Of a DNA stretch of 37,820 nucleotides, positions 2,609 through 30,664 are shown in pieces. The position numbers were made by a program, and so were the translations under genes. A model generated the notes under the pieces. The model did not search any database, was not told where the DNA came from, and was given only the letters and a program-made list of their open reading frames with translations. Origin of the DNA: a virus; the UHGV virus genome UHGV-0214728, one strand, 5' to 3'. The number at the start of each line of letters is the position of its first letter. The stretch's first letter is position 1.

Positions 2609-3715
2609 CTACTCAATGTTTTTGCTTTTCTGCAACTTATCGAATTTTTCATGCAGAGTTTTCGGAAATAGCTCAGTGTAAACCTGCCACAATATATTGA
2701 GTGAACGATGTCCTGTGACCTGCGCTACCTCTTCAATGCTGAATCCTGCTTCAAACAGACGGCTTGCCCCTTCGCGCCGTAGATCGTGATACCTCAGATC
2801 CTCAATCCCCAACTCGTCACGAACGCGCCGATACATGGCTGTTATACTTTTCGGATTGAACGGGAATACCCTGTCGTCAACACGAGGCTGCATCGTCAAT
2901 ATCCTCCAGGCATCACCAAGTAAGGGCACTAACATGTGGTTGCCGATTTTTTTCCTCGGGTCCTTCCTGTCTCTAACGATAACAGAACGCTGAATATCGT
3001 CCACATCCTCCCAGAGAAGACGACAAACCTCTCCAACCCTCATACATGTAAGTATGGAAAACATAAATATTTGATGTAATGGCGCCCCGGTGTATGCCGT
3101 TTCTGCCTTAACTTTAAGAACTTCATACAACCGATCAACCTCGGTAGCACTTGCGCGGCGACTACGTCGCTGTGAAGGACCTGTGATCCCCATATTTCTC
3201 AACCAAACTTTAGCGTCAGATAATTCGTTCAAATTAGCTGGGGCGCCAAAAAGTGGCTTGGCCGCTTCAAGCGCAACACTTAAATACGATACGTCCTGAG
3301 AGATAGTGGAAGGCGCAAGTCCTTGCGCTTTTCGGGTCTGGCAGTGCTCGATAATATGTTTTGCGGTCAAGTCCGTAAGTTTGATTTCTGCCAGAAAGGA
3401 ACGGCCAAGGGTGCGGAGAGAGCTTCTTTTTGATGCACCGAGCGTTATGTTTGGGTGGTTTTCATACTGAGTAAGCAGGTCACCAACAGTTTTAACAGAG
3501 ATCTCTTTCATCTCTTTTTCTGGCTCTGGGAGACCATGCTCTTCAATGTATGCTACACGTTTAGCCCCCCAGGACTTCGCAAGGGTGTTCTTGGAGAAGG
3601 TTTTGTTCTCCCGGTGGACGTACTTACCATTTTGTTTAACGGCTACAGTACAGCGATAACGGGCAGTTCCATCGCTGCGTAATCTTTTCTCTATGGTGAA
3701 GAAAGCCATATCCAA
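2609..3715 (-). CDS. int: Phage tyrosine integrase (site-specific recombinase)
   Basis: Protein of 368 aa with the C-terminal catalytic region '...HDLRREGASRLFEAGFSIEEVAQVTGHRSLNILWQVYTELFP', giving the R...H..R...Y tetrad typical of lambda-family integrases. It sits at the prophage end, next to an excisionase-like gene. Confidence 0.9.
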   Translation of the reverse strand: MDMAFFTIEKRLRSDGTARYRCTVAVKQNGKYVHRENKTFSKNTLAKSWGAKRVAYIEEHGLPEPEKEMKEISVKTVGDLLTQYENHPNITLGASKRSSLRTLGRSFLAEIKLTDLTAKHIIEHCQTRKAQGLAPSTISQDVSYLSVALEAAKPLFGAPANLNELSDAKVWLRNMGITGPSQRRSRRASATEVDRLYEVLKVKAETAYTGAPLHQIFMFSILTCMRVGEVCRLLWEDVDDIQRSVIVRDRKDPRKKIGNHMLVPLLGDAWRILTMQPRVDDRVFPFNPKSITAMYRRVRDELGIEDLRYHDLRREGASRLFEAGFSIEEVAQVTGHRSLNILWQVYTELFPKTLHEKFDKLQKSKNIE

Positions 3716-7561: not shown

Positions 7562-8221
7562 TTAAATGTTTTGGGTAATCTGAACCACTTTACCAACAAT
7601 CCGGCAATTACCATCTATCGGGATGGGTTTAAAGGCAGGGTTAAGTGGCATCAAGTATGCGAAAGGGCTATCCCATACCAACTTTTTAACGGTAGCTTCA
7701 GCAGAGCCGTCGAGTATAGCCACTACAATTTTTCCGTAAAGGTCATCCAGTTGGCCATAGTGCGGTTCAACAATAACGATCGATCCTTCTGGGATGGATG
7801 GCAGACCATGAGGATTAGTCATAGACTCCCCGCGAACTACCAGTCCGAATGCTTCATTAGAAACGTTTGCAGTGGTTTGCGTCCATGAAATCACATCAGA
7901 AAGCCTTGAGCATGCATAAGTATCAGTCCACATCCCAGCTTGAACAGCGGAGATAATAGGAACTGCCGTGGGTGGCTTAAGGAACGGAATAACTTTTGTA
8001 TCATCCGGCGTTTCCTCACCTCGACCGTAAAGAATCCATTCTGGAGTTGTCTGCAGCGCCACCGCCAGCTGATGGAGATTCTCACCATCAGGTTTAGTAG
8101 TGCCGCTCTCCCATTTTGTTACGGAAACACGGCTTACCCCTAAGCGTTTAGCCAGGGTCTGCTGTGTTATGTCGAGCTGGACTCGACGGGATCTTATTCG
8201 GTCTTTCATCTCTGTTTTCAT
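7562..8221 (-). CDS. cI: CI-like repressor with an XRE-type HTH and a LexA/S24 autopeptidase domain
   Basis: The N-terminal 'QQTLAKRLGVSRVSVTKWESG' is an HTH. The C-terminal region carries a 'GESM' Ser and a downstream Lys, 'KIVVAILDGSAEATVKKL', typical of RecA-cleavable repressors. It is divergent from a cro-like gene. Confidence 0.9.
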   Translation of the reverse strand: MKTEMKDRIRSRRVQLDITQQTLAKRLGVSRVSVTKWESGTTKPDGENLHQLAVALQTTPEWILYGRGEETPDDTKVIPFLKPPTAVPIISAVQAGMWTDTYACSRLSDVISWTQTTANVSNEAFGLVVRGESMTNPHGLPSIPEGSIVIVEPHYGQLDDLYGKIVVAILDGSAEATVKKLVWDSPFAYLMPLNPAFKPIPIDGNCRIVGKVVQITQNI

Positions 8222-8284
8222 GTAACCAATGTTACATGGATTCCTTGTAACTGTTGTTTGCTATTTAATGTACCTTTTGTTACC
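8221..8284. promoter_or_regulatory. OR-like tripartite operator region between cI and cro
   Basis: Three sites spaced at about 24 bp: TGTAACcaatGTTACA (a perfect palindrome, 8221-8236), TGTAACtgttGTTTGC (8246-8261) and TGTACCttttGTTACC (8269-8284). Confidence 0.55.
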
Positions 8285-8313
8285 TTTAAGGCGTAAGTTA
8301 ACCAGGAGGAACC

Positions 8314-8511
8314 ATGCGTAAATCAGAAGTTATCGAACACTTCGGAGGCGTATCAAAAACCGCAAGTGTTCTTGGTATTTCCCACCCGGCAGTTTGCCGA
8401 TGGGGTGAAGTCATCCCTCAAAAACAAGCATTCGTCATCGAACGAATTACGAAAGGCAAGCTGAAGTACGACGCTAGCCTTTACCAAAAGGCTACAGATT
8501 CAGCTGCTTGA
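8314..8511 (+). CDS. cro: Cro-like HTH regulator
   Basis: Protein of 65 aa, 'KTASVLGISHPAVCRWGE', resembling the Cro/P22 Cro HTH. It is divergent from cI, with a GGAGG RBS. Confidence 0.75.
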   Translation: MRKSEVIEHFGGVSKTASVLGISHPAVCRWGEVIPQKQAFVIERITKGKLKYDASLYQKATDSAA

Positions 8512-8536
8512 AAGTAACTACAAAAGGAAAATCAAT

Positions 8537-8998
8537 ATGGTAGAGCCAAACCTCAAAGAAGCCGTCAAAGCGATGTGCAAAGCATATCCAGGTGGGCGCG
8601 AAGCAATGGCTGGCGCACTGGGAATGACGGTGACGCAGTTTAACAACAACCTTTACGAGAAAAACGGCTGTCGTTTCTTCGAAGTCAGCGAGCTGGAAGC
8701 GATGGAAGACATTTCCAACACGTCGTTACTGGCTGATTACTTCGCTCGCCGTCGTGGTGCTTTGCTGGTGGATGTTCCGCACCTGGAAGAGCTGGATCGC
8801 GTGGACTTGTTCAGCCGGGCAATGCGTACCTCTGCCGCCAGGGGACAGGTTGATCAGATTATCGAACAGGCGCTTGAAGATGGCGTTATTGAAAGGCATG
8901 AGGCCGAAGAAATCATGGTCCACCACCGCCGCCATCTGGCAGCTCGTGAAGAAGAGATTGCCGCAATCATCACGCTTTTTTCACGCAAAAAGAAGTGA
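8537..8998 (+). CDS. CII-like regulatory protein, CP76 / phage 186 CII type
   Basis: Protein of 153 aa directly after cro. Its size and position fit the CP76-type CII family. The assignment comes from position and general resemblance only. Confidence 0.5.
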   Translation: MVEPNLKEAVKAMCKAYPGGREAMAGALGMTVTQFNNNLYEKNGCRFFEVSELEAMEDISNTSLLADYFARRRGALLVDVPHLEELDRVDLFSRAMRTSAARGQVDQIIEQALEDGVIERHEAEEIMVHHRRHLAAREEEIAAIITLFSRKKK

Positions 8999-9235
8999 CG
9001 CCAGCGAGTTGCAGCTCCTGGCGTCGTGGCGTGTCGTTATCAGTGGAGATTACTAACGCATGAACAGTTTATCAACACAATACCGCAGGTCGCAACTTGT
9101 AGCGCGGCCAGTACCTGGTGGAGCAGGACCGGTGCAGTTCGTGTATGGGGTAAGAGTACCTGGCGGGTTCGAGCCTGTCTGCTACCAGTTTGCTCAGTGG
9201 GTGGTAGGGGACTTCAACGGCCAGGCGGAGAAAGT

Positions 9236-9415
9236 ATGCGAGAGCTCAACCGATGGTTCAGAGATCACTACGGCGTCCCGGTCAGGGTCATACGCTGGGA
9301 GCCCCAGACACAGCGCGTTATATACCTGCGTAAAGGGTACGAGCATGAATGCTTTAGCCCCCTTGAGCAGTTCAGACGTAAATTCAGAGAAATAAAGGAC
9401 GATCATGAGCACTAA
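9236..9415 (+). CDS. Small hypothetical protein of 59 aa
   Basis: Good RBS (GGAGAAAGT-ATG). Translation MRELNRWFRDHYGVPVRVIRWEPQ... is protein-like. The upstream parts of both overlapping long ORFs (9026 and 9060) look less coding. Confidence 0.4.
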   Translation: MRELNRWFRDHYGVPVRVIRWEPQTQRVIYLRKGYEHECFSPLEQFRRKFREIKDDHEH

Positions 9416-10343
9416 ATTAACAGGATACGTCTGGGACGCTTGCGCATCTTCGGGGATGAAACTATCCAGCGTGGCAATCATGGCGCGCCTGGCTGACTTC
9501 AGCAACGATGAGGGTGTTTGCTGGCCTTCTATCGCGACCATATCCCGTCAGATTGGCGCTGGTGAAAGTACTGTCAGAACGGCGATAGCTGCACTTGAGA
9601 AAGAGGGGTGGCTCACTCGCACACAGCGCCGCAACGGCAACCGTAATGCATCGAACGTCTACCAGCTCAACGTTTCCAAACTACAGAAAGCGGCATTTTC
9701 TCACCTGTCAGTTTCTGACCCGTCAAAATCTGATGCGTCAAAAACTGACCCCTCAAAATTTGAGGCGTCGAAATCCACCAAAAAAACCAGTTTTGACCCG
9801 TCAGAATCTGGGGGGGATCCGTCAGTAAGATCAACTACTGATCCATCAGATATAAATCCTTCTTGTCCGGACGCTTCGCAACCGGACGAACAGGGCTCTG
9901 CTGATGAATTTCTGTCACGACATCCTGACGCGGTGGTGTACAGCGCTGCAAAGCGGCAGTGGGGAAGTCAGGACGATTTAACCTGCGCCGAGTTCATTTG
10001 GGGGAAAATTATCAGCATGTACGAACTGGCCGCTGAAAGTGATGGTGAGGTAGTTCGGCCTAAAGAACCAAACTGGACCGCATGGGCGAATGAGGTGCGC
10101 CTGATGGTGATGCAGGACGGGCGAACCCATAAACAAATTTGCTCGCTTTTCAAGCGCGCCAACAAAGATTCGTTCTGGTGCAAAAACGTGCTTAGCCCGT
10201 CGAAACTTAGGGAAAAATGGGATGAGCTGTCGTTAAAACTTTCTGTTCCACTCAATAGCTCCCGCCAGGAGGCGTCGATTTCGCGAGCCAGCTTCGAAGG
10301 GGTTGATTACTCATTGCCAGAAAACTCGGGGTTCCGCTCATGA
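9405..10343 (+). CDS. Replication initiation protein with an N-terminal winged HTH (HTH_36-like) and embedded iterons
   Basis: The N-terminal 'VAIMARLADFSNDEGVCWPSIATISRQIGAGESTVRTAIAALEKEGWL' is typical of phage replication initiators. The low-complexity middle segment 'DPSKSDASKTDPSKFEASKS' is encoded by iteron DNA. Confidence 0.7.
   Translation: MSTKLTGYVWDACASSGMKLSSVAIMARLADFSNDEGVCWPSIATISRQIGAGESTVRTAIAALEKEGWLTRTQRRNGNRNASNVYQLNVSKLQKAAFSHLSVSDPSKSDASKTDPSKFEASKSTKKTSFDPSESGGDPSVRSTTDPSDINPSCPDASQPDEQGSADEFLSRHPDAVVYSAAKRQWGSQDDLTCAEFIWGKIISMYELAAESDGEVVRPKEPNWTAWANEVRLMVMQDGRTHKQICSLFKRANKDSFWCKNVLSPSKLREKWDELSLKLSVPLNSSRQEASISRASFEGVDYSLPENSGFRS
9707..9857. repeat. Candidate origin iterons. 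About 6-7 imperfect direct repeats of a CGTCARAAT-containing unit (TGACCCGTCAAAATCTGA-like) lie inside the initiator gene and are followed by an AT-rich stretch.
   Basis: Seen directly: tgacccgtcaaaatctga (9716-9733), tgcgtcaaaaactga, tgacccctcaaaatttga (9756-9773), tgacccgtcagaatctgg (9794-9811), gatccgtcagtaagatca (9816-9833) and gatccatcagatataaat (9840-9857). This is analogous to ori-lambda inside gene O. Confidence 0.6.
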
Positions 10344-11149
10344 GCAAGCCATTTCTCAAATGGGCTGGCGGAAAGTATACCCAGCTGGCTGACCTGTTCG
10401 TGCATATCCCGGCAGGGAAACGCCTGATAGAGCCATTCGTTGGTGGTGGGTCGATATTCCTGAACAGCGAAAAGCACGCAGATTACCTGCTGGCGGACGT
10501 TAATCCGGACCTGATTAATCTGTATCAGATGTTAGCGGTGGTGCCGGATGAAGTGGAATTGAAGGCCCGCTGGATGTTCGAGCACATGCGGTCACCAGAT
10601 GGCTATGAGCTGATCCGTTCCGAGTTCAACGCACAGACGCTGGATGCTACTGAACGCGCAGCTGCATTCCTGTATCTCAACCGGCATTGCTTCAATGGCC
10701 TGATGCGCTACAACCAGGCGAATAAGTTCAATGTGGGCTGGGGAGGCTACAAGGCGCCGTATTACCCGATGGATGAGATGAAAGCCTTTGCGGCTATGGC
10801 GCATAACTGCGTATTCATGACCGCTGACTATCGCCGGACAATCAGCCTGGCCGGGAAAGGGGATGTGGTTTACTGCGATCCGCCTTACGAACCGATGCCG
10901 GGAACAACCGGATTCACTGCCTACGCCGCTGGTGGTTTTAGCTGGGAGAACCAGGTAGACCTGGCGAAGCAATGTGTATCTGCCTTTCACCGTGGGGCTC
11001 GGGTAGTGATTTCTAACTCATCTGCACCGAAGGTTCTCGACCTGTACCGGGAGCATGGTTTTAACCTGCAATTCATTAAAGCGCGCCGTTCGATCTCCTG
11101 CAAAAGCAGTACGCGGGAAGTCGCAAAAGACGTTGTAGCGATCCTTTAA
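10340..11149 (+). CDS. dam: DNA adenine methyltransferase (Dam, GATC-specific, D12 class)
   Basis: 'FLKWAGGKY', 'EPFVGGGSIFLN', 'FLYLNRHCFNGLMRYN' and 'VYCDPPY' align with E. coli Dam throughout. Confidence 0.92.
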   Translation: MSKPFLKWAGGKYTQLADLFVHIPAGKRLIEPFVGGGSIFLNSEKHADYLLADVNPDLINLYQMLAVVPDEVELKARWMFEHMRSPDGYELIRSEFNAQTLDATERAAAFLYLNRHCFNGLMRYNQANKFNVGWGGYKAPYYPMDEMKAFAAMAHNCVFMTADYRRTISLAGKGDVVYCDPPYEPMPGTTGFTAYAAGGFSWENQVDLAKQCVSAFHRGARVVISNSSAPKVLDLYREHGFNLQFIKARRSISCKSSTREVAKDVVAIL

Positions 11150-13232: not shown

Positions 13233-13805
13233 ATGTGGTTAGGAATACCTTTTCTTTATGTCAAAGAAAGATTAGCAGATACAGTTACTATTGATAAGAT
13301 TCCATCAATAACAGTGGATTCATCGTTTTCTTGGGAAACAATAATTGCGGCTTTTATAAGTGGCTTAGTTCCAGCTTTAATTTCTCTGTATGTCATAAAG
13401 AATAATAACGAATCTATAAGATATCAACAAAAACAAGAAGATAAGAGGCATTTCTCTGCGCATATGCGAGTAGTAATAAGCGAATACGCATATCAATTAT
13501 CAAAAGTAAAAGAGATACATGCTGAGTGCTTACGTTTTAGCTCAATGTTCAGTAGTGTCAAAACTTCTGAGTTGGCAGATAAAATGTCTGATGCCTTGTT
13601 AGAGTTAGAAAGATACAAAGCAAGTTTATTGATTTCTATACCAGAGGATGATGCTGGTAGAAAATTTAAAGAAGAAATAAATGAAATTTCAGAGTCCTTA
13701 TCCGAACAAATAAAATATGGGTTGAAAACAACAAAAATGGAAAAAGTTTGGAATGATGATTATGATGCATTTATATCCAATTCTAATAGATATTTAAATA
13801 AGTAA
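13233..13805 (+). CDS. Moron-encoded protein of 190 aa with an N-terminal TM helix and a charged, coiled-coil-like C-terminal domain
   Basis: About 30% GC. It has its own RBS (AAGGTGA). The TM segment is 'WETIIAAFISGLVPALISLYVI'. A strong terminator follows. It is located between Q and the lysis genes. Confidence 0.6.
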   Translation: MWLGIPFLYVKERLADTVTIDKIPSITVDSSFSWETIIAAFISGLVPALISLYVIKNNNESIRYQQKQEDKRHFSAHMRVVISEYAYQLSKVKEIHAECLRFSSMFSSVKTSELADKMSDALLELERYKASLLISIPEDDAGRKFKEEINEISESLSEQIKYGLKTTKMEKVWNDDYDAFISNSNRYLNK

Positions 13806-15473: not shown

Positions 15474-15606
15474 TACGGCCTGCAGCTGGGTGCGGATCAT
15501 CTACCTGACCGACCACGATATCGACGTGCTGGATAAGCAGACCAAGCGCGACATTCTGGCGCACAACAGAACAGTTAAAAGAAACTGTAATCAACTAAAA
15601 ATGTGA
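15388..15606 (+). CDS. o-spanin (Rz1-like) lipoprotein, starting inside the i-spanin in the +1 frame and extending beyond it
   Basis: 'MYSRLLAICLMTMLIGSC' is a signal peptide with a lipobox-like IGSC. This is the overlapped spanin architecture. Confidence 0.5.
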   Translation: MYSRLLAICLMTMLIGSCAKSLPAPVVVDTACSWVRIIYLTDHDIDVLDKQTKRDILAHNRTVKRNCNQLKM

Positions 15607-15696
15607 CGCAAGTCCCAATTATCCATTGCGTTGCTAAGTGTTACAAAATCCATTGAATTATGATGTGTGTTTACACTCACATAGCAATGGATATTT

Positions 15697-16632
15697 ATGG
15701 CTACTTACAAATATTATAATATACAGATGCTACCTCTAACCAATAGTAAAAAAAATATTGGTAAAGAGGGTTATATTAAATTATTCCAGCATCTGGGAGA
15801 CAAACTTCGCAAAGTTTTGTCATCGGAAGGTGATTTAAGAAATATCGCTATTCCATTGAGGAATGATTTCTTTTTTGCTCCGTATGAAATAAATGCTAGA
15901 GAGGACATGGTTTATGGTCGTTTTTTAAAGTTTGACAAGGTAGATGTTGTTAGAAAAACTATTAGCAGAGTTCAGACTTATGCGGCTGGTTTTGGCGAGT
16001 CTAGTAAGATTTATGAGTATAGGTTTGTATTTGATCCTGTATTGCATATCCTTGCTATCGAAGATAGCCCTTCATTACCTAGCGCAAGTGTTTTATATAA
16101 GGTGCTTAATGAGGTGTTTAAAGATGCGCGCAGGAAATTATATCCATCCTTTCGCATGAGTGTTGATGAATTAACATCTTCTGCTAGTCTAGATAATGTT
16201 ATAAAAGAGTCTAAAGGATATTATTCCTTTAAAACAGAAATAACTTTCTCTAACTCTAATGATTTTATTGAAGGACTAGAAGAATTGCTAGAGGGGGTTG
16301 AGGCTGAAATGAAAGATAAAGGGATTGATAAGCTGGAGCATAAAGAGTCATCAGACAAAGACTCAATAATGACTGACGTTAGTACAATCGCGTTGGTTTA
16401 TGCAGGTTTATCATGCAAGTTTGGGAATACTGAAATATCTTATAAAGACAAAAGCAATAAGAAAAAAGTTTTCAAAATGGCCGATTATCCTGTAAGAAAA
16501 CGTGTGTCTGAGTCTATGAAAAAAAGGGCATCAATTTTAGACTATTATTATGATGTGAAAAACACAATTAATGCAGCTAATAATGAGTCCAGAACAGGAA
16601 GTGGATTGCTAAAGAAAATTAGAAAAGGATAG
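15697..16632 (+). CDS. Cargo cassette gene 1: 311-aa soluble Lys/Asp/Ser-rich protein of unknown function. Candidate sensor component of a defence system.
   Basis: About 32% GC, against about 53% in the flanks. It follows an AT-rich putative promoter gap (15607-15696). Its stop is 4 nt from the next start, which shares an AAGGA RBS. Confidence 0.7.
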   Translation: MATYKYYNIQMLPLTNSKKNIGKEGYIKLFQHLGDKLRKVLSSEGDLRNIAIPLRNDFFFAPYEINAREDMVYGRFLKFDKVDVVRKTISRVQTYAAGFGESSKIYEYRFVFDPVLHILAIEDSPSLPSASVLYKVLNEVFKDARRKLYPSFRMSVDELTSSASLDNVIKESKGYYSFKTEITFSNSNDFIEGLEELLEGVEAEMKDKGIDKLEHKESSDKDSIMTDVSTIALVYAGLSCKFGNTEISYKDKSNKKKVFKMADYPVRKRVSESMKKRASILDYYYDVKNTINAANNESRTGSGLLKKIRKG

Positions 16633-16636
16633 TGTG

Positions 16637-17263
16637 ATGAAAGTTGGTGGATGGGACATTAATCATGAGAATATACTTAAAATAATTAAGTCTATTCCAT
16701 ATGTTGGTGCAATTTTTATCATTGCCAACTTTTATGCTAATTCTGGAGTTTTATCAGACAGGAAGCGAATTGCAAATTTCAAAAATTGGGTGCGGAGGGT
16801 GCTTTCTGGTGTTTTATTTACTTTTGTTTTAAGTTTGTTGATTGTGACATTTTTCAGAGATGGGCTTTACAATCCCAACTCAAACACTGCAGGTCTCGAC
16901 GCAACCCTTGTTGCTTTATCCATATTTCCGAGCATATTAGGTTTTGGCATTGGTGTGTTTGTTGTTGTTTTTGCCCTTCCGAATCAATTCATTGAGAAAA
17001 TAAATCTTATCAAACATAACGGTAAAAATAAAACTTTTGGCGCATCGTTAATGGTTGTCGATATGGCTTATCCTCTAATGGTATATGCTGTTGTCCTGAT
17101 GGGTGAGTTTTTTCTGAAACTATTCCAGGTTGGGTTTATTACACATGTGTTGAGTATCTTTTTATTATTATATGGAATGCTGATGACTTTTGATTTAATA
17201 TCTATGATTTTCATGACAGCGTATGCGCTTTTAGCTACGCAAGCATCAAGAAACCCTAAATAG
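16637..17263 (+). CDS. Cargo cassette gene 2: polytopic inner-membrane protein with about 6 TM helices. Candidate membrane effector.
   Basis: Hydrophobic segments include IPYVGAIFIIANFY, VLSGVLFTFVLSLLIVTFF, LVALSIFPSILGFGIGVFVVVFALP, LMVVDMAYPLMVYAVVLMGEFF and VLSIFLLLYGMLMTFDLISMIFMTAYALLA. It is translationally coupled to gene 1. Confidence 0.7.
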   Translation: MKVGGWDINHENILKIIKSIPYVGAIFIIANFYANSGVLSDRKRIANFKNWVRRVLSGVLFTFVLSLLIVTFFRDGLYNPNSNTAGLDATLVALSIFPSILGFGIGVFVVVFALPNQFIEKINLIKHNGKNKTFGASLMVVDMAYPLMVYAVVLMGEFFLKLFQVGFITHVLSIFLLLYGMLMTFDLISMIFMTAYALLATQASRNPK

Positions 17264-17457
17264 TAGTATTTTTAGTTCGTTCTTTGGCTCAATGATTTTG
17301 TCGATGCAGCAGCCAGGTTCGATAACTAAAGTAATCAATAGAGAATCTTTGCAGTGTGTCAATAAGACGTAGGAAAGGTAAGTTAAGGCACTGCAGTATG
17401 CAAATACTGGTTGTTTGTGATATGTTTAACTACTTGCACACAACCAGGTCGTTAAAT

Positions 17458-17832
17458 ATGGGCGAATATATAAGCGCTACTATTACTGGATTATGGGAAT
17501 CCTATTTGTTATGGTCCAAACAGAAACGAGAGCTAACAATATCCAAGTTAGAAGCGCTATCAAATTTATTGATAGAGAATCGGGCCTACCTGAGGGATTT
17601 CGCACACCAAGGTGTTAAAGACGCTCAAAGGGAACTTGAACTTGCAAAGGAGTGGAGACGTGTCGGTCTCTTATTTCAAGATATTTCCCCTGAGTTGTCA
17701 GACATATGTGATCACAAATCAGACTACTGGATATATTCAGATAGATATACCAAGCAGAAAGTTAATGAGCTAGGGATAACAATAAGAAATCTCGAACACA
17801 AGCTAAGAATGGCAAAGAAAAACCTTCTATAG
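17458..17832 (+). CDS. Cargo cassette gene 3: 124-aa hypothetical protein
   Basis: Start chosen at MGEYIS. The upstream part of the table ORF (MSIRRRKGKLRHC...) looks non-coding. It is AT-rich and a terminator follows. Confidence 0.45.
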   Translation: MGEYISATITGLWESYLLWSKQKRELTISKLEALSNLLIENRAYLRDFAHQGVKDAQRELELAKEWRRVGLLFQDISPELSDICDHKSDYWIYSDRYTKQKVNELGITIRNLEHKLRMAKKNLL

Positions 17833-17851
17833 AATCCCTTTGTAATTTATG

Positions 17852-17883
17852 AAAGCCACCTTTTAAACGGTGGCTTTTTTATT
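17852..17883 (+). terminator. Rho-independent terminator closing the cargo cassette
   Basis: AAAGCCACC-ttttaaac-GGTGGCTTT hairpin followed by TTTTTTATT. Confidence 0.6.
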
Positions 17884-17896
17884 GGAGATGATAAGG

Positions 17897-18247
17897 ATGC
17901 CCGCACTAATTCCCCGTGTATGCCGTAAGCGTGGATGCGCAGGCACAACAACCGACCGCTCAGGATACTGCGAGAAGCACCGCAATGAAGGCTGGCAACA
18001 GCATCAGCAAGGCAAGAGTAGGCATGAGCGCGGCTATGGTAGCCAGTGGGACATTAAGCGAGCCCGCATTCTTAAGCGTGATAATCACCTGTGTCAGAAC
18101 TGCCTTCGAACTGGGCGTGCCGTTGCAGCCAAGACCGTTGACCACATCAAGGCTAAAGCTCATGGGGGTACCGATGATGATTCGAACCTCGAAAGCCTGT
18201 GCTGGCCCTGTCACAGAACGAAAACCGGACGTGAACGTTTCAAGTGA
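17897..18247 (+). CDS. HNH endonuclease, terminase-associated
   Basis: 'CQNCLRTGRAVAAKTVDHIKAKAHGGTDDDSNLESLCWPCHRTKT' is an HNH motif, plus an N-terminal Cys cluster. It is adjacent to terS/terL as in HK97-like cos phages. Start at 17897 (AAGG RBS); the table start lies inside the terminator. Confidence 0.8.
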   Translation: MPALIPRVCRKRGCAGTTTDRSGYCEKHRNEGWQQHQQGKSRHERGYGSQWDIKRARILKRDNHLCQNCLRTGRAVAAKTVDHIKAKAHGGTDDDSNLESLCWPCHRTKTGRERFK

Positions 18248-18404
18248 TATCGATTCCCATTTGAGTCGAGGCGGAGGGGGGCGGGGTCAAATCCCTGACG
18301 GCGAAGGCCCAAAGGACCGCCGCCTAACCTTTTTTCACACCGCCGCAGGTTAGAAAACTTTTTTTTGGGGTCCCCCATCCGATGATTAATAGGAGTTTTC
18401 GATT

Positions 18405-26980: not shown

Positions 26981-27214
26981 ATGACTACTACTGGCTGGAT
27001 ATTATTATTTGTTTTTGCTCGCCTTATTGATCTTGTTATCTGGTATTTCCTGAACAGAGGAAGCGTAAGAGCTAATGATCAGATCGCTATGCTTAAAGAA
27101 ATCTCTGAAAAGCAAAGTGCTCAAATTGATCTTCTGATTGCACTTGCTCATAAAAAAGAGGAACCAGAAAAAGATTATCTGGAAGAAGCAAGGAAAAAAG
27201 CTGGTTTAATTTAA
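26981..27214 (+). CDS. Moron: small N-terminally membrane-anchored protein of 77 aa
   Basis: About 31% GC. The TM segment is 'GWILLFVFARLIDLVIWYFL', followed by a charged helix. The gene has its own terminator and is inserted between the chaperones and the tape measure gene. Confidence 0.5.
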   Translation: MTTTGWILLFVFARLIDLVIWYFLNRGSVRANDQIAMLKEISEKQSAQIDLLIALAHKKEEPEKDYLEEARKKAGLI

Positions 27215-27230
27215 TAATATTGAAATCATA

Positions 27231-27258
27231 AAAAAGCCCCACAATGTGGGGCTTTTTG
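27231..27258 (+). terminator. Rho-independent terminator after the small moron
   Basis: AAAAAGCCCCA-caatg-TGGGGCTTTTTG. Confidence 0.65.
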
Positions 27259-27274
27259 TTTCTGAGGAAATGAA

Positions 27275-30200
27275 ATGGCAACCCTGCGTGAACTTATCAT
27301 TAAAGTTTCTGCTAACTCTCAGTCATTCCAGACCGAGATAGCCCGCGCGTCACGTATGGGGGCTGATTATTATAAGACAATGCAGAATGGCGGCAGGCAG
27401 GCTGCGGCTTCAGTTCGGGAAACTCGCCGTTCTGTTGCTGAGCTAACTGACCAGATGGAGTCAGCAAAGGCTACCGCACTGGGGTTAACCGGGGCATTTG
27501 CTGGTGCTTTTGCTACGGGGCATTTAATAGCCCTGGCCGATGAATGGAATTCAGTAAACGCCCGCCTAAAACAGGCATCTCAATCAACTGATGATTTTAC
27601 CAGCTCTCAAAAACAGCTGATGGATATCAGTCAGAAAACGGGTACATCTTTTTCTGACAACGCTAATTTATTTTCCCGTTCAGCAGCATCAATGCGGGAA
27701 TATGGTTACAGCTCCAGCCAGGTGCTGGATATTACTGAGGCTATTTCTACTGGTTTAAAACTTTCTGGCGCGAATGCTCAGGAGTCCAGTTCGGTCATCA
27801 CTCAGTTTAGCCAGGCTCTGGCGCAGGGCGTGCTGAGAGGTGAAGAATTCAATGCCGTCAACGAGAGCGGTGACAGGGTTATACGGGCGCTTGCGGCAGG
27901 GATGGGGGTTGCGCGTAAAGACCTTAAATCTATGGCGGATCAGGGGCAGTTAACCATTGATAAAGTAGTGCCAGCCCTCATCAGCCAGCTTGGTAAGCTA
28001 CGGAATGAATATGGTGAATTGCCGCAGACTGTTTCATCGTCGGCAACAAAAGTTGAAAACGCTTTTATGCAATGGGTCGGTGGAGCTAATGAAGCTAGTG
28101 GCGCGACAAATACCTTAACCGGATTACTTGATGGCGTAGCCAACAATATTGATCAGATCGCCACTGCTGCCGGAGCGCTTGTTGCCGTTGGTGCAGCCCG
28201 ATATTTGGGAAATATGGCTCTTGGTGCCAGCTCTGCAACGGCCGGGATTATTAATGCTGCAAAAAGTGAAGTAGCTTTAGCTGAAGCCCAGGTCAGAGGG
28301 ATGCAGGTTTCGACAGCTCGCGCGCGTGCTGCAGTTTATCGTGCTCAGCAGGCACTGGCAGCGGCGCGGGGTACAGACGCGCAGGCCGCTGCAGAAAAAC
28401 GGCTCTCACTGGCGCAGGAGTCACTTAACCGTAATATTCAGGCCAGAGTATCCGCTCAGACTGCGCTGAACTCGGTTACTGCTGTAGGTTCCCGGCTCAT
28501 GGGTGGAGCATTAAGCCTCGTTGGCGGTATTCCAGGGCTGGTTTTGCTTGGTGCCGGTGCCTGGTACACGATGTACCAGAATCAGGAACAGGCCAGATTA
28601 TCCGCTCAGGAATATGCAAACACCATTGATGCAGTCCGTGAAAAGACAAAATCAATGTCCCTGCCCGAAGTTTCTGATAATGAGACCAAAACCCGTCAGG
28701 CGCTGGAGGAGCAAAACCGTCTTGTTGATGCACAGGCATCAAAAGTAAAAAGCCTGAAGGAAGAGATCGCGGGCTATCAGTATGTTCTGTCCAACCCCGG
28801 GCCGACAACCAGTGGCGGTTTCATGATAAACCACCTTACTTCGGTTGAAACGGTCACCCGTAGTCTGGAAGAAGCGACTTCCGCTCTGGCCGTTGAACAG
28901 GAGAGGCTGACTCAGATGCAGGCTAAGTCTGAGTCGATCCAGTCGGTACTGGAAGGGATAGAGAACAGGCGAATAGCATTAATCCGGCAGCAGGCCGCAG
29001 AACAGAATTCAGCATATCAATCGTTATTAATGATGAACGGTGAGCATACTGAATTTAACCGTTTGCTGGGTCTCGGAAATAATCTCCTCATGGCCCGGCA
29101 GGGGCTGGTAAACGCACCACTACGCTTACCGCAGGTAGACCTCACAACCCAGCAAACGGCTGCACTTGAAAAAAGCCGTCGTGATCTGGCGCTTTCAAAA
29201 CTCAAAGGTGAGGACAAAGAGCGCGCACGACTGGGTTATGCTGCGGATGACCTGGGGTTAACTAACGACCCACAGTTTCAGACCGGACGGCAGGAGTTGA
29301 TTAATAACGGCCTGAATGAATGGAGAAACAACCAGGAAAATAAACCCAAGCCAAAAGGAAGGCATGGGAAAACCGAGGCGGAGAAAACCGAAGATACCTA
29401 TACCCGGCTGATTAAACAGCAACGGGAGCAAATTGCTCTTTCCAGCCAAAACACTGAACTGGCAAAGATGAAATATCAGGTTACTCAGGGGGAATTATCT
29501 TCGCTTGAAAAATCCAAAAAGGAAACGTTGCTGCACAATGCGGCGCTTATTGATCAGAAAAATATCGCTGAACAGTTAAAAACATTCCGCGAAGGTCTGG
29601 CCGACAGTAATGCTGCCGCCCGGGAAAGGGGGAATATCGATTTCCTCGGCGCGGGACAGGGGGATAAAGCCCGTGACCGAATGACGGAAATGGCGGATAT
29701 TCGTGCTGATTTTCTCAGGCAGCAGCGTGACTTACAGCGTGATTTCAGTCGTGGGCAGATTTCCGAAGACCTGTATAAAAAGCAAACGGAAGCGCTTAAA
29801 ACAGCGCTTGCCGAACGCCTGGATATTCAGGAGGAGTATTACAAAAAAACCGATGAACAGCAGTCAGACTGGCGCGCGGGGATCAGCGATTCCCTGATGA
29901 ACTATGCCGATCAGGCTTCTGATCTGAGTTCAATGGCTGCCACTGCAACCAGCGAGATTCTGGATGCCACCACTAACTCTATCTCCAACAACCTGACAAA
30001 CGTCCTGACAGGCGCTGCTTCGTTTAAATATGGGATGTCGAATATTTTTTCTTCCCTGGGCGAAACGGTGATTAAGACGCTGATCCAGATGGCAACACAG
30101 GCGTTGATCACTAAAGCGATTATGGCGTCATTTGGCGGCGGAGCGGGTGGGTTGTTCGGTAGTCTTTTTGGCGGTGCCAGCGGTGCGGCAAGTAGTGGTA

Positions 30201-30664
30201 CCGCTATTCAAAGCGCGGGAGCTAATTTTTCATTTAACGCTCTCGGAGGCGTTTACGATTCTCCGTCACTTTCTGCCTACAGCAATGGTGTTTACAGCAC
30301 TCCCCAATATTTTGCGTTTGCGAAAGGTGCGGGTGTATTCGGCGAGGCCGGGCCGGAAGCCATCATGCCGCTTACCCGTGGTGCTGATGGTTCGCTGGGG
30401 GTCAAAGCTGTTGGGCGGGAATCGCCGGCGGTACAGAACGCTGCGAGGCAGCAGCAGGAAAGACAACTTCTTTCAACTGGTGACATCAACGTCAATTACC
30501 ACCTCACTGGTAAACCGGATGATGTGATGATGCAGACATTGGATGCCCACGGCCGCCGCCTGGCTAAACAGATAAAATCTGAACTGACGAGCGACGTAAA
30601 CAATCCTCAAAATGCCTTCGGTAGAGCTCTTTACTCCAACCTTCAGCCCAAAAAACCACGATAA
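27275..30664 (+). CDS. Tail tape measure protein
   Basis: Protein of 1129 aa, Ala/Gln-rich and coiled-coil, with a Gly-rich C-terminal region. It is in the canonical position. Confidence 0.9.
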   Translation: MATLRELIIKVSANSQSFQTEIARASRMGADYYKTMQNGGRQAAASVRETRRSVAELTDQMESAKATALGLTGAFAGAFATGHLIALADEWNSVNARLKQASQSTDDFTSSQKQLMDISQKTGTSFSDNANLFSRSAASMREYGYSSSQVLDITEAISTGLKLSGANAQESSSVITQFSQALAQGVLRGEEFNAVNESGDRVIRALAAGMGVARKDLKSMADQGQLTIDKVVPALISQLGKLRNEYGELPQTVSSSATKVENAFMQWVGGANEASGATNTLTGLLDGVANNIDQIATAAGALVAVGAARYLGNMALGASSATAGIINAAKSEVALAEAQVRGMQVSTARARAAVYRAQQALAAARGTDAQAAAEKRLSLAQESLNRNIQARVSAQTALNSVTAVGSRLMGGALSLVGGIPGLVLLGAGAWYTMYQNQEQARLSAQEYANTIDAVREKTKSMSLPEVSDNETKTRQALEEQNRLVDAQASKVKSLKEEIAGYQYVLSNPGPTTSGGFMINHLTSVETVTRSLEEATSALAVEQERLTQMQAKSESIQSVLEGIENRRIALIRQQAAEQNSAYQSLLMMNGEHTEFNRLLGLGNNLLMARQGLVNAPLRLPQVDLTTQQTAALEKSRRDLALSKLKGEDKERARLGYAADDLGLTNDPQFQTGRQELINNGLNEWRNNQENKPKPKGRHGKTEAEKTEDTYTRLIKQQREQIALSSQNTELAKMKYQVTQGELSSLEKSKKETLLHNAALIDQKNIAEQLKTFREGLADSNAAARERGNIDFLGAGQGDKARDRMTEMADIRADFLRQQRDLQRDFSRGQISEDLYKKQTEALKTALAERLDIQEEYYKKTDEQQSDWRAGISDSLMNYADQASDLSSMAATATSEILDATTNSISNNLTNVLTGAASFKYGMSNIFSSLGETVIKTLIQMATQALITKAIMASFGGGAGGLFGSLFGGASGAASSGTAIQSAGANFSFNALGGVYDSPSLSAYSNGVYSTPQYFAFAKGAGVFGEAGPEAIMPLTRGADGSLGVKAVGRESPAVQNAARQQQERQLLSTGDINVNYHLTGKPDDVMMQTLDAHGRRLAKQIKSELTSDVNNPQNAFGRALYSNLQPKKPR

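Follow-up and report, generated by a model that had tools for sequence, protein, structure and literature searches.

How the RexA/RexB pair of phage lambda (PF15969/PF15968; PDB 8TWQ) works has remained unsolved since the 1950s, and few Rex-like pairs have been put to the test. Among actinophages, a role in prophage defence has been shown by experiment for Sbash gp30/gp31 and CarolAnn gp44/gp43 (PMC6426596, PMC6426606), and RexAB-type systems defined by structure have been validated in Pseudomonas putida (RexABpp; PMC12894663) and in Vibrio cholerae (Sucellos; bioRxiv 10.1101/2024.07.02.601686). The protein family DUF4747 has already been tied to Rex-like prophage defence, the soluble actinophage proteins having been reported by the Hatfull and Ware laboratories to give a weak HHpred match to it (PMC6426596, PMC6426606, PMC7542560), and in 2026 the term “DUF4747/CarolAnn prophage system”, and not Sucellos, was used for DUF4747 operons (PMC13373217). 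Here we describe a computational analysis of the virus genome UHGV-0214728, all 37,820 nucleotides of which are called the window in the following, and of two adjacent genes between its lysis and packaging functions, gene 1 and gene 2, referred to together as the pair.

We consider it probable that a lambdoid/HK97-like Klebsiella prophage carries genes 1 and 2 as a moron and that the two constitute an anti-phage module with two components, of the RexAB type. This reading is supported by the fold that gene 1 has in its model, by the membrane character of gene 2, by their obligate pairing and fixed order, and by a foreign base composition, the position in a hotspot and the association with defence genes. 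A system of this kind is already known, and the pair is most likely a new member of the RexAB-type class and not a new category. An earlier sequence-only reading of the same DNA had proposed a three-gene cassette at 15607-17890 that might be an undescribed system; its three open reading frames are indeed present at the coordinates it gave, but gene 1 belongs to a family already connected with Rex-like defence. The features of the pair are as follows.

15576-15696, plus strand: left edge of the hotspot and 5' untranslated/regulatory region of the pair, starting at the synteny breakpoint and containing a conserved block at ~15634-15668
15697-16632, plus strand: gene 1, a soluble DUF4747 protein of 311 residues (open reading frame, Pfam match, fold model)
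16637-17263, plus strand: gene 2, a polytopic inner-membrane protein of 208 residues (helices in the model, conserved pairing); an alternative GTG start at 16634 gives 209 residues

The soluble protein and its membrane partner

By its profile match gene 1 is a bona fide member of DUF4747 (PF15931), scoring 87.1 bits against a Pfam cutoff of 27 (E = 1.7e-24) with residues 8-270 aligned to positions 1-255 of the 257 in the profile, and the identical protein is labelled “DUF4747 family protein” at NCBI. The family is small, an exhaustive phmmer search with gene 1 giving 94 representatives at 50% clustering. The AlphaFold model of gene 1, made with an alignment of 73 sequences, has a pLDDT of 93.2 and a pTM of 0.90, and its best Foldseek match among 350,542 solved chains is lambda RexA (8twq; E = 1.4e-6, probability 1.0), followed by RdgC, CENP-N, Chl4 and Iml3. 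RdgC and Iml3/Chl4 are the proteins named as relatives of RexA in the paper on its crystal structure (PMC11077077), and this agreement therefore supports a fold of the RexA/RdgC type. The model consists of seven strands (residues 2-123), a domain of four strands and four or five helices (130-250) and then C-terminal helices, and this order of strands and helices fits that of RexA, in which a split globular domain is interrupted by a dimerisation domain. As modelled, gene 1 has the RexA/RdgC-type two-domain fold that characterises the soluble component of RexAB-type systems, in line with the RexA-like fold that the sequence-only reading had named as a hypothesis.

In 73 sequences with no more than 20-40% identity to gene 1, four of its residues, Tyr26, His117, Asn186 and G243, are invariant, His117 being part of the motif F-x-F-D-x(3)-H-I-L-A-I-E at the domain boundary. 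Tyr26, His117 and Asn186 are without counterpart among the conserved residues of RexA, a protein for which we know of no catalytic activity, and their conservation may point to the binding of a ligand or to catalysis rather than to mere clamping of DNA.

Co-inheritance is the strongest indication that genes 1 and 2 act together. A homolog of gene 2 lies directly after the DUF4747 gene in 31/31 loci from diverse Proteobacteria and phages, comprising 13 genomic loci (Gamma- and Betaproteobacteria) and 18 viral loci from IMG/VR with complete sequence. The spacing between the two genes is -44 to +38 nt in 13/13 genomic and 18/18 viral loci, and the partner is found with E-values from 1e-37 to 1e-85 by its hidden Markov model (HMM). 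Distant homologs of gene 2 (32-37% identity) in Vibrio, Aliivibrio and Proteus are likewise all directly 3' of a DUF4747 gene. The pairing is obligate, and the soluble gene precedes the membrane gene. In the window gene 1 stops at 16632 and the ATG of gene 2 is at 16637, which leaves a gap of 4 nt, and AAGGA is found 7 nt upstream of this ATG; the layout is compatible with translational coupling, as had been noted from the sequence.

For gene 2, the model (pLDDT 80.8) contains four long helices, at residues 48-72, 89-112, 136-160 and 167-205, preceded by two short N-terminal helices at 10-34, and most homologs show about four hydrophobic peaks. The core is thus predicted to have four transmembrane (TM) helices and is not clearly the 6-TM protein of the sequence-only reading. 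Together with the 4-nt gap and the pairing in all 31 loci, this provides the adjacent, co-oriented downstream gene for a protein of about four TM helices that is found in RexAB-type systems. A glycine-rich helix, IFPSILGFGIG, and a DMAYPL motif are strongly conserved in the family, and the strict conservation of the former, a TM helix, might suggest a dedicated pore. Gene 2 matches phrog_27113 and has no Pfam, NCBIfam or PADLOC family.

Comparison with described systems

The pair shares with lambda RexAB the gene order, rexA preceding rexB, and the four TM helices of the membrane protein, so that the position of the membrane gene as the second one, which had earlier been counted as a mismatch with known systems, is in fact a point of agreement. 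The two differ in that sequence similarity is not detectable and genes 1 and 2 fall outside the RexA and RexB families, in that gene 2 has 208 residues and an extra N-terminal helical pair while RexB has 144 residues, and in location, since lambda RexAB belongs to the PRM immunity operon with cI whereas the pair is found at the junction of lysis and packaging genes, ~7.5 kb from cI. In the actinophage systems Sbash gp30/gp31 and CarolAnn gp44/gp43 a soluble gene is followed by an overlapping 4-TM gene, the same order as in the pair. CarolAnn gp44, however, falls below the Pfam DUF4747 threshold by HMMER while gene 1 is well above it, and the soluble actinophage proteins are longer (337-372 residues against 311) and have hosts in the Actinobacteria.

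P. putida RexABpp (PP_5643/PP_5644) resembles the pair in that PP_5644 has four TM helices, as gene 2 does, but differs in being located near a CI-like repressor. PP_5643 is connected to RexA by HHpred with a probability of 98%, whereas the DUF4747 profile gives no significant match to RexA by hhalign.

The closest described proteobacterial system, as judged from its published description, is probably Sucellos (SclA/SclB, VCA0367-0368 of V. cholerae N16961), a two-gene cassette that is RexAB-like by predicted structure and is missed by the Rex Pfam models. Both of its genes are required, SclB is a predicted pore, and infected cells undergo immediate lysis or death; the system is carried by Vibrio integrons and has often been found in prophages of Salmonella (bioRxiv 10.1101/2024.07.02.601686). 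Gene 1, too, is a soluble protein that is RexA-like by structure and has no Rex Pfam match, and the family of the pair shares the distribution of Sucellos, with members in cassette arrays of V. cholerae and V. anguillarum and at a strain-specific locus of Salmonella. The V. cholerae homologs of the pair are, however, rare variants and not the N16961 proteins. In one of these V. cholerae loci (L003, 5058-8771) the pair is followed by an open reading frame of 213 residues and a transposase of the IS110 family, a layout resembling that of the published N16961 Sucellos cassette, which contains an insertion sequence (IS) and has attC sites 4 kb apart; the proteins differ from those of N16961.

Kiwa (KwaA/KwaB), which had been suggested through a possible relationship of gene 1 to KwaB (DUF4868), was rejected, as no DUF4868 or Kwa match was obtained in Pfam or PADLOC. 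In Kiwa the membrane protein KwaA comes first, the opposite of the order found here.

Several results weigh against assignment of the pair to the RexAB type. Gene 1 does not match the RexA HMMs of Pfam and PADLOC, with which the lambda RexA control scores 326.8 and 364.3 bits, and gene 2 does not match the corresponding RexB HMMs, although the PADLOC RexA and RexB models do recognise lambda. Gene 1 and lambda RexA give only non-significant results in BLASTP, phmmer and hhalign, searches of the sequences in the PDB with gene 1 by phmmer and by profile hmmsearch return no match, and the hhalign comparison of DUF4747 with the RexA sequence and profile is likewise non-significant (probability 0.35%). 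The best sequence signal, that between DUF4747 and a three-member profile of CarolAnn, Sbash and Sejanus, is also non-significant by hhalign (E = 0.047, probability 1.1%) and is centred on the conserved inter-domain segment “HILAIE...LP...FP”. The gene 2 family gives no significant sequence match to RexB (hhalign probability 0.14%), gene 2 has no significant sequence or structural similarity to the Sbash and CarolAnn partners, and a Foldseek search of BFVD with its model returned nothing significant, lambda RexB being outside the top 50. The setting of the pair adds two further points, namely that a promoter scan gave 10 sigma-70-like sites where 8.9 are expected by chance, with none well placed and thus no convincing promoter for expression in the lysogen, and that the CI-like repressor gene lies ~7.5 kb away on the opposite strand, which places the pair outside the immunity operon.

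A control comparison of lambda RexA with the CarolAnn/Sbash family by hhalign fails as well (probability 0.15%); the hhalign negatives are therefore uninformative, since they reflect a limit of the tool and do not argue against a relationship. A Sbash protein of 165 residues, which is the length of gp31, ranked fourth when viral folds were searched with gene 2, with values that are non-significant (E 0.98, TM 0.49).

The promoter scan gives no backing to the AT-rich, promoter-like gap that the sequence-only reading had placed at 15607-15696. A block at ~15634-15668 has nevertheless been kept between copies that are ~72% identical while the adjoining spacer diverged, and it contains an A-tract and the -10-like TATGAT (15659-15664), 33 nt 5' of the start codon of gene 1. 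A canonical -35 is not present at the block, which we regard, from its conservation, as a candidate promoter or operator. Both Sucellos (bioRxiv 10.1101/2024.07.02.601686) and Sbash 30/31 have their own promoter, the latter pair being located outside the immunity region, near a holin and a minor-tail gene (PMC6426596, PMC6426606).

Genomic setting and possible functions

The element is a lambdoid/HK97-type prophage, as judged by its gene content around the insert. Upstream are the antiterminator Q, two holins, a GH19 endolysin and two spanin-like open reading frames, and downstream are HNH, terS (Terminase_4) and terL, the same lysis and packaging neighbours as had been read from the sequence; further left in the window are an integrase (2609-3715), the CI-like S24 repressor (7562-8221, minus strand), CII, Dam and RusA. 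The GC content of 15607-17890 is 35.3% and that of the rest of the window 51.3% by exact computation, and in 500-nt windows a sharp island of 0.34-0.37 over 15501-17500 is seen against about 0.50-0.57 in the flanks. The insert has a foreign, moron-like base composition; the sequence-only reading had recognised the island, although its figures of 32% and 53% somewhat exaggerated the contrast. When the window was compared by BLAST with syntenic phages and prophages, homology stopped within the 3' end of the o-spanin gene (~15568-15575) and restarted at ~17896-17908. The same junction is occupied by 0.6-1.5 kb of small, unrelated genes in Klebsiella phage 1 LV-2017, E. coli phage vB_EcoS-733R5 and Klebsiella phage ST101-KPC2phi6.3. 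Between the spanins and HNH/terS there is a genuine hotspot of variable content, as the earlier reading had supposed from gene order.

Copies of the pair with at least 80% identity are all located directly after the spanins, and divergent copies are found in other phage hotspots, adjoining a cI-like gene, 3' of Q or 5' of a holin. The V. cholerae copies lie in cassette arrays, surrounded by cassettes for ParE, HigB and Phd, and V. anguillarum copies are in cassette arrays also, while the strain-specific locus of Salmonella Welikade consists of a DUF4747 gene of 894 bp followed by a gene of 606 bp. In Serratia (L011) the pair is followed by the complete PADLOC candidate system PDC-M01 A+B (8175-10591; E = 3.5e-166 and 1.6e-81), a PtuA-like ATPase and its partner, and 5' of the pair ~140 nt remain from a phage o-spanin gene; this locus is a small defence islet from a decayed prophage. 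In Proteus mirabilis the pair is located between a type II methyltransferase gene, just upstream, and a fragment of LmuA, and in Acinetobacter DUF4747 operons have been described 3' of the capK-capS immune regulators (PMC13373217). The Proteus fragment (L006, 8455-8952) is an open reading frame of 165 residues that matches only the N-terminal part of the Lamassu protein LmuA (DUF4297/Cap4 nuclease) and is apparently truncated.

The whole cassette occurs at ~99% identity in 10/5,426 complete E. coli genomes, and proteins identical to those of the pair, present on 231 and 639 contigs, come for the most part from Klebsiella pneumoniae. Searches with gene 1 by tblastn gave no match in 50,697 deposited phage genomes and, in plasmids, a single match to a mislabelled Proteus chromosome. 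The NCBI annotation of the pair is limited to DUF4747 and hypothetical protein, and a PADLOC search with all three proteins of the cassette, one of the checks proposed earlier, gave no match.

By analogy with lambda RexAB, Sbash gp30/gp31, CarolAnn gp44/gp43, P. putida RexABpp and Sucellos, the pair would be expected to act through DNA binding, dimerisation, activation of gene 2 and membrane damage, with an anti-phage phenotype as the result. Gene 1 is proposed to be a cytoplasmic sensor and is probably a DNA-binding dimer whose binding to DNA would be non-specific; non-specific DNA binding together with dimerisation is described for RexA, Sbash gp30, CarolAnn gp44, Toast gp42 and RexApp (PMC11077077, PMC12894663). 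The trigger during heterologous infection may be a phage protein or an intermediate of replication or recombination. Once triggered, gene 1 would activate gene 2, which is proposed as a membrane effector functionally equivalent to RexB/SclB, and gene 2 would oligomerise or open with collapse of membrane integrity or potential, such that growth stops or the cell dies before the invading phage can finish its cycle, i.e. abortive infection. RexBpp leads to uptake of SYTOX and propidium iodide and to leakage of enzyme, and in RexABpp, a validated relative, the soluble protein activates and does not neutralise its membrane partner (PMC12894663). The scheme of a soluble sensor with a membrane effector, which the sequence-only reading had likened to RexAB and linked to probable abortive infection, is supported as a general logic.

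The location immediately 3' of the spanins in the close lineage might instead indicate that the pair serves the cycle of the prophage itself, by setting the timing of lysis, by modulating holin or spanins, or by biasing the switch between lysogeny and lysis. Roles of both kinds have been reported for lambda RexA/RexB, PMC11077077 describing an action of RexA on the bistable switch without need of RexB, and as no independent promoter appears in the promoter scan, expression by read-through from the late operon is possible. Syntenic phages without the pair nevertheless carry other cargo at the site, and the pair is therefore dispensable; its foreign base composition, its presence outside functional prophages (the V. 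cholerae arrays and the Serratia islet) and, in other phages, elsewhere in the genome, and the defence genes among its neighbours all speak against a role in the phage's own cycle, which we hold to be unlikely. No tail or lysis function, homology to which would have pointed away from defence, came up in the Pfam, NCBIfam and PADLOC scans, DUF4747 being the only match.

It is similarly improbable that the pair is a toxin-antitoxin or addiction module, in which gene 2 would be a membrane toxin and gene 1 its antitoxin, together stabilising a mobile element or cassette array. Gene 1, with 311 residues, is large and has the DNA-binding fold of RexA/RdgC and not that of an antitoxin, no toxin-antitoxin family was matched in Pfam, NCBIfam or PADLOC, and the soluble protein of validated relatives activates the membrane partner (PMC12894663); set against this are the company of ParE, HigB and PhD-type toxin-antitoxin cassettes in V. 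cholerae and an overlapping two-gene layout with a membrane partner that may resemble some membrane toxin systems like those of types V and VI. Such a module would in any case overlap with abortive infection and does not exclude it. A prophage-encoded inner-membrane protein at a moron position could also be thought to confer non-suicidal superinfection exclusion in the manner of Sie or Imm, with gene 2 blocking the entry of DNA or another early step and gene 1 as an accessory or regulator, and Butters gp30/31 has been proposed to act without clear cell death (PMC7542560). Strict co-inheritance with a protein of RexA fold in 31/31 loci argues for a sensor-effector pair, however, and with the validated structural relatives, Sucellos and RexABpp, the outcome is death of the cell or damage to its membrane; we give simple exclusion very little credence.

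Within the RexAB-type assignment, which we prefer for genes 1 and 2, it is conceivable, but in our opinion doubtful, that the gene 1 family and its partner represent a distinct clade of Rex-like systems with its own trigger and chemistry, separate from lambda RexAB, the actinophage systems and Sucellos. If this were true, the module, which is widespread in prophages of Klebsiella and E. coli, would amount to a new family of the Rex-like superfamily. The relevance of the pair is mostly practical, as a module of probable defence function that is common in these prophages and goes unannotated. It is common in clinical K. pneumoniae and missed by PADLOC, and may affect the host range of therapeutic Klebsiella phages. 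Being compact and obligately paired, with a confident model of the putative sensor, it is also a convenient system for the study of Rex-type sensing and of the opening of the membrane partner.

Gene 3 and other features of the window

The insert consists of two separable modules, genes 1-2 and gene 3, and its remaining features are the following.

17264-17457, plus strand: spacer between the first module and gene 3 (fold z-score -0.54), with homology to a phage carrying only gene 3 from 17368 onwards
17458-17832, plus strand: gene 3, a soluble helical protein of 124 residues (phrog_28881, intact open reading frame), a separate module
17851-17883, plus strand: hairpin and U-tract resembling an intrinsic terminator, with a 10-bp stem and a GC-rich core, which ends the insert just 5' of the HNH gene

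Gene 3 had originally been counted with the pair as one three-gene unit, but each occurs without the other. Klebsiella phage ST101-KPC2phi6.3 has gene 3 without the pair, being 95.6% identical over 17368-18325 of the window (gene 3, terminator and start of HNH), and the gene 3 segment is found alone in 4 complete E. coli genomes, while an Enterobacter prophage, at the same junction, and the Serratia chromosomal islet have the pair without gene 3. Gene 3 is absent from 28/31 paired loci and present only in the near-identical Klebsiella/E. coli lineage. The possibility raised by the sequence-only reading, that the genes might be unlinked in relatives, thus applies to gene 3, and not to genes 1 and 2, which are linked in 31/31 loci. 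Gene 3 stands on its own as a small gene, located in the same hotspot and bringing the terminator with it, and it lies outside the conserved pair.

Besides phrog_28881, gene 3 matches the more distant phrog_12412 (E = 4.9e-14). Its longest open reading frame opens at 17356, and a 1-nt indel at 17423 in two lineages excludes the longer upstream starts and leaves ATG 17458 as the start. The reading frame is intact in all copies and 8/13 substitutions are at third positions, so that on this evidence it looks like a real gene, and the segment is left unannotated by the Prokaryotic Genome Annotation Pipeline (PGAP) in every E. coli genome examined (e.g. L031 4158-4786 and L032 2972-3482). Scans of Pfam, NCBIfam and PADLOC gave gene 3 no accepted defence, toxin-antitoxin, lysis or tail family, and a match to CARF3 with E = 0.027 was dismissed as noise.

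The strong intrinsic terminator that had been noted at the 3' end of the cassette is well supported, the hairpin at 17851-17883 having a folding energy of -17.9 kcal/mol and z = -4.5, with 0/200 shuffles equally stable, although it was not picked up by a simple terminator scan. It travels with gene 3, since homology to L002 and to the E. coli locus L032 covers it, and no terminator-like structure was found in the spacer 17264-17457. An Rfam scan of the cassette gave a sub-threshold chance match to a snoRNA only. For the HNH gene the probable start is ATG 17897, preceded by GGAG at 17885-17888, in place of the GTG 17870 that opens the longest open reading frame (17870-18247), and the HNH start annotated by PGAP in E. 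coli locus L032 maps to the same ATG; the terminator hairpin is therefore outside the HNH coding sequence.

Other low-GC stretches are present in the window. A second island (~0.35-0.36) at 13233-13805 on the plus strand, between antiterminator Q and the holin, contains an open reading frame of 190 residues without a Pfam or PADLOC match and looks like another moron hotspot; in relatives the Q-holin junction carries a minus-strand open reading frame of 165 residues (L012) or “TciA” (Klebsiella phage 1 LV-2017). At the left end, beyond the integrase, an open reading frame of 214 residues on the minus strand (297-941; GC 0.35-0.40) also gave no Pfam or PADLOC match. Finally, the GC content dips to 0.42 at 27001-27500, just before and at the start of an open reading frame of 1129 residues (27275-30664), which has the size of a tape-measure protein.

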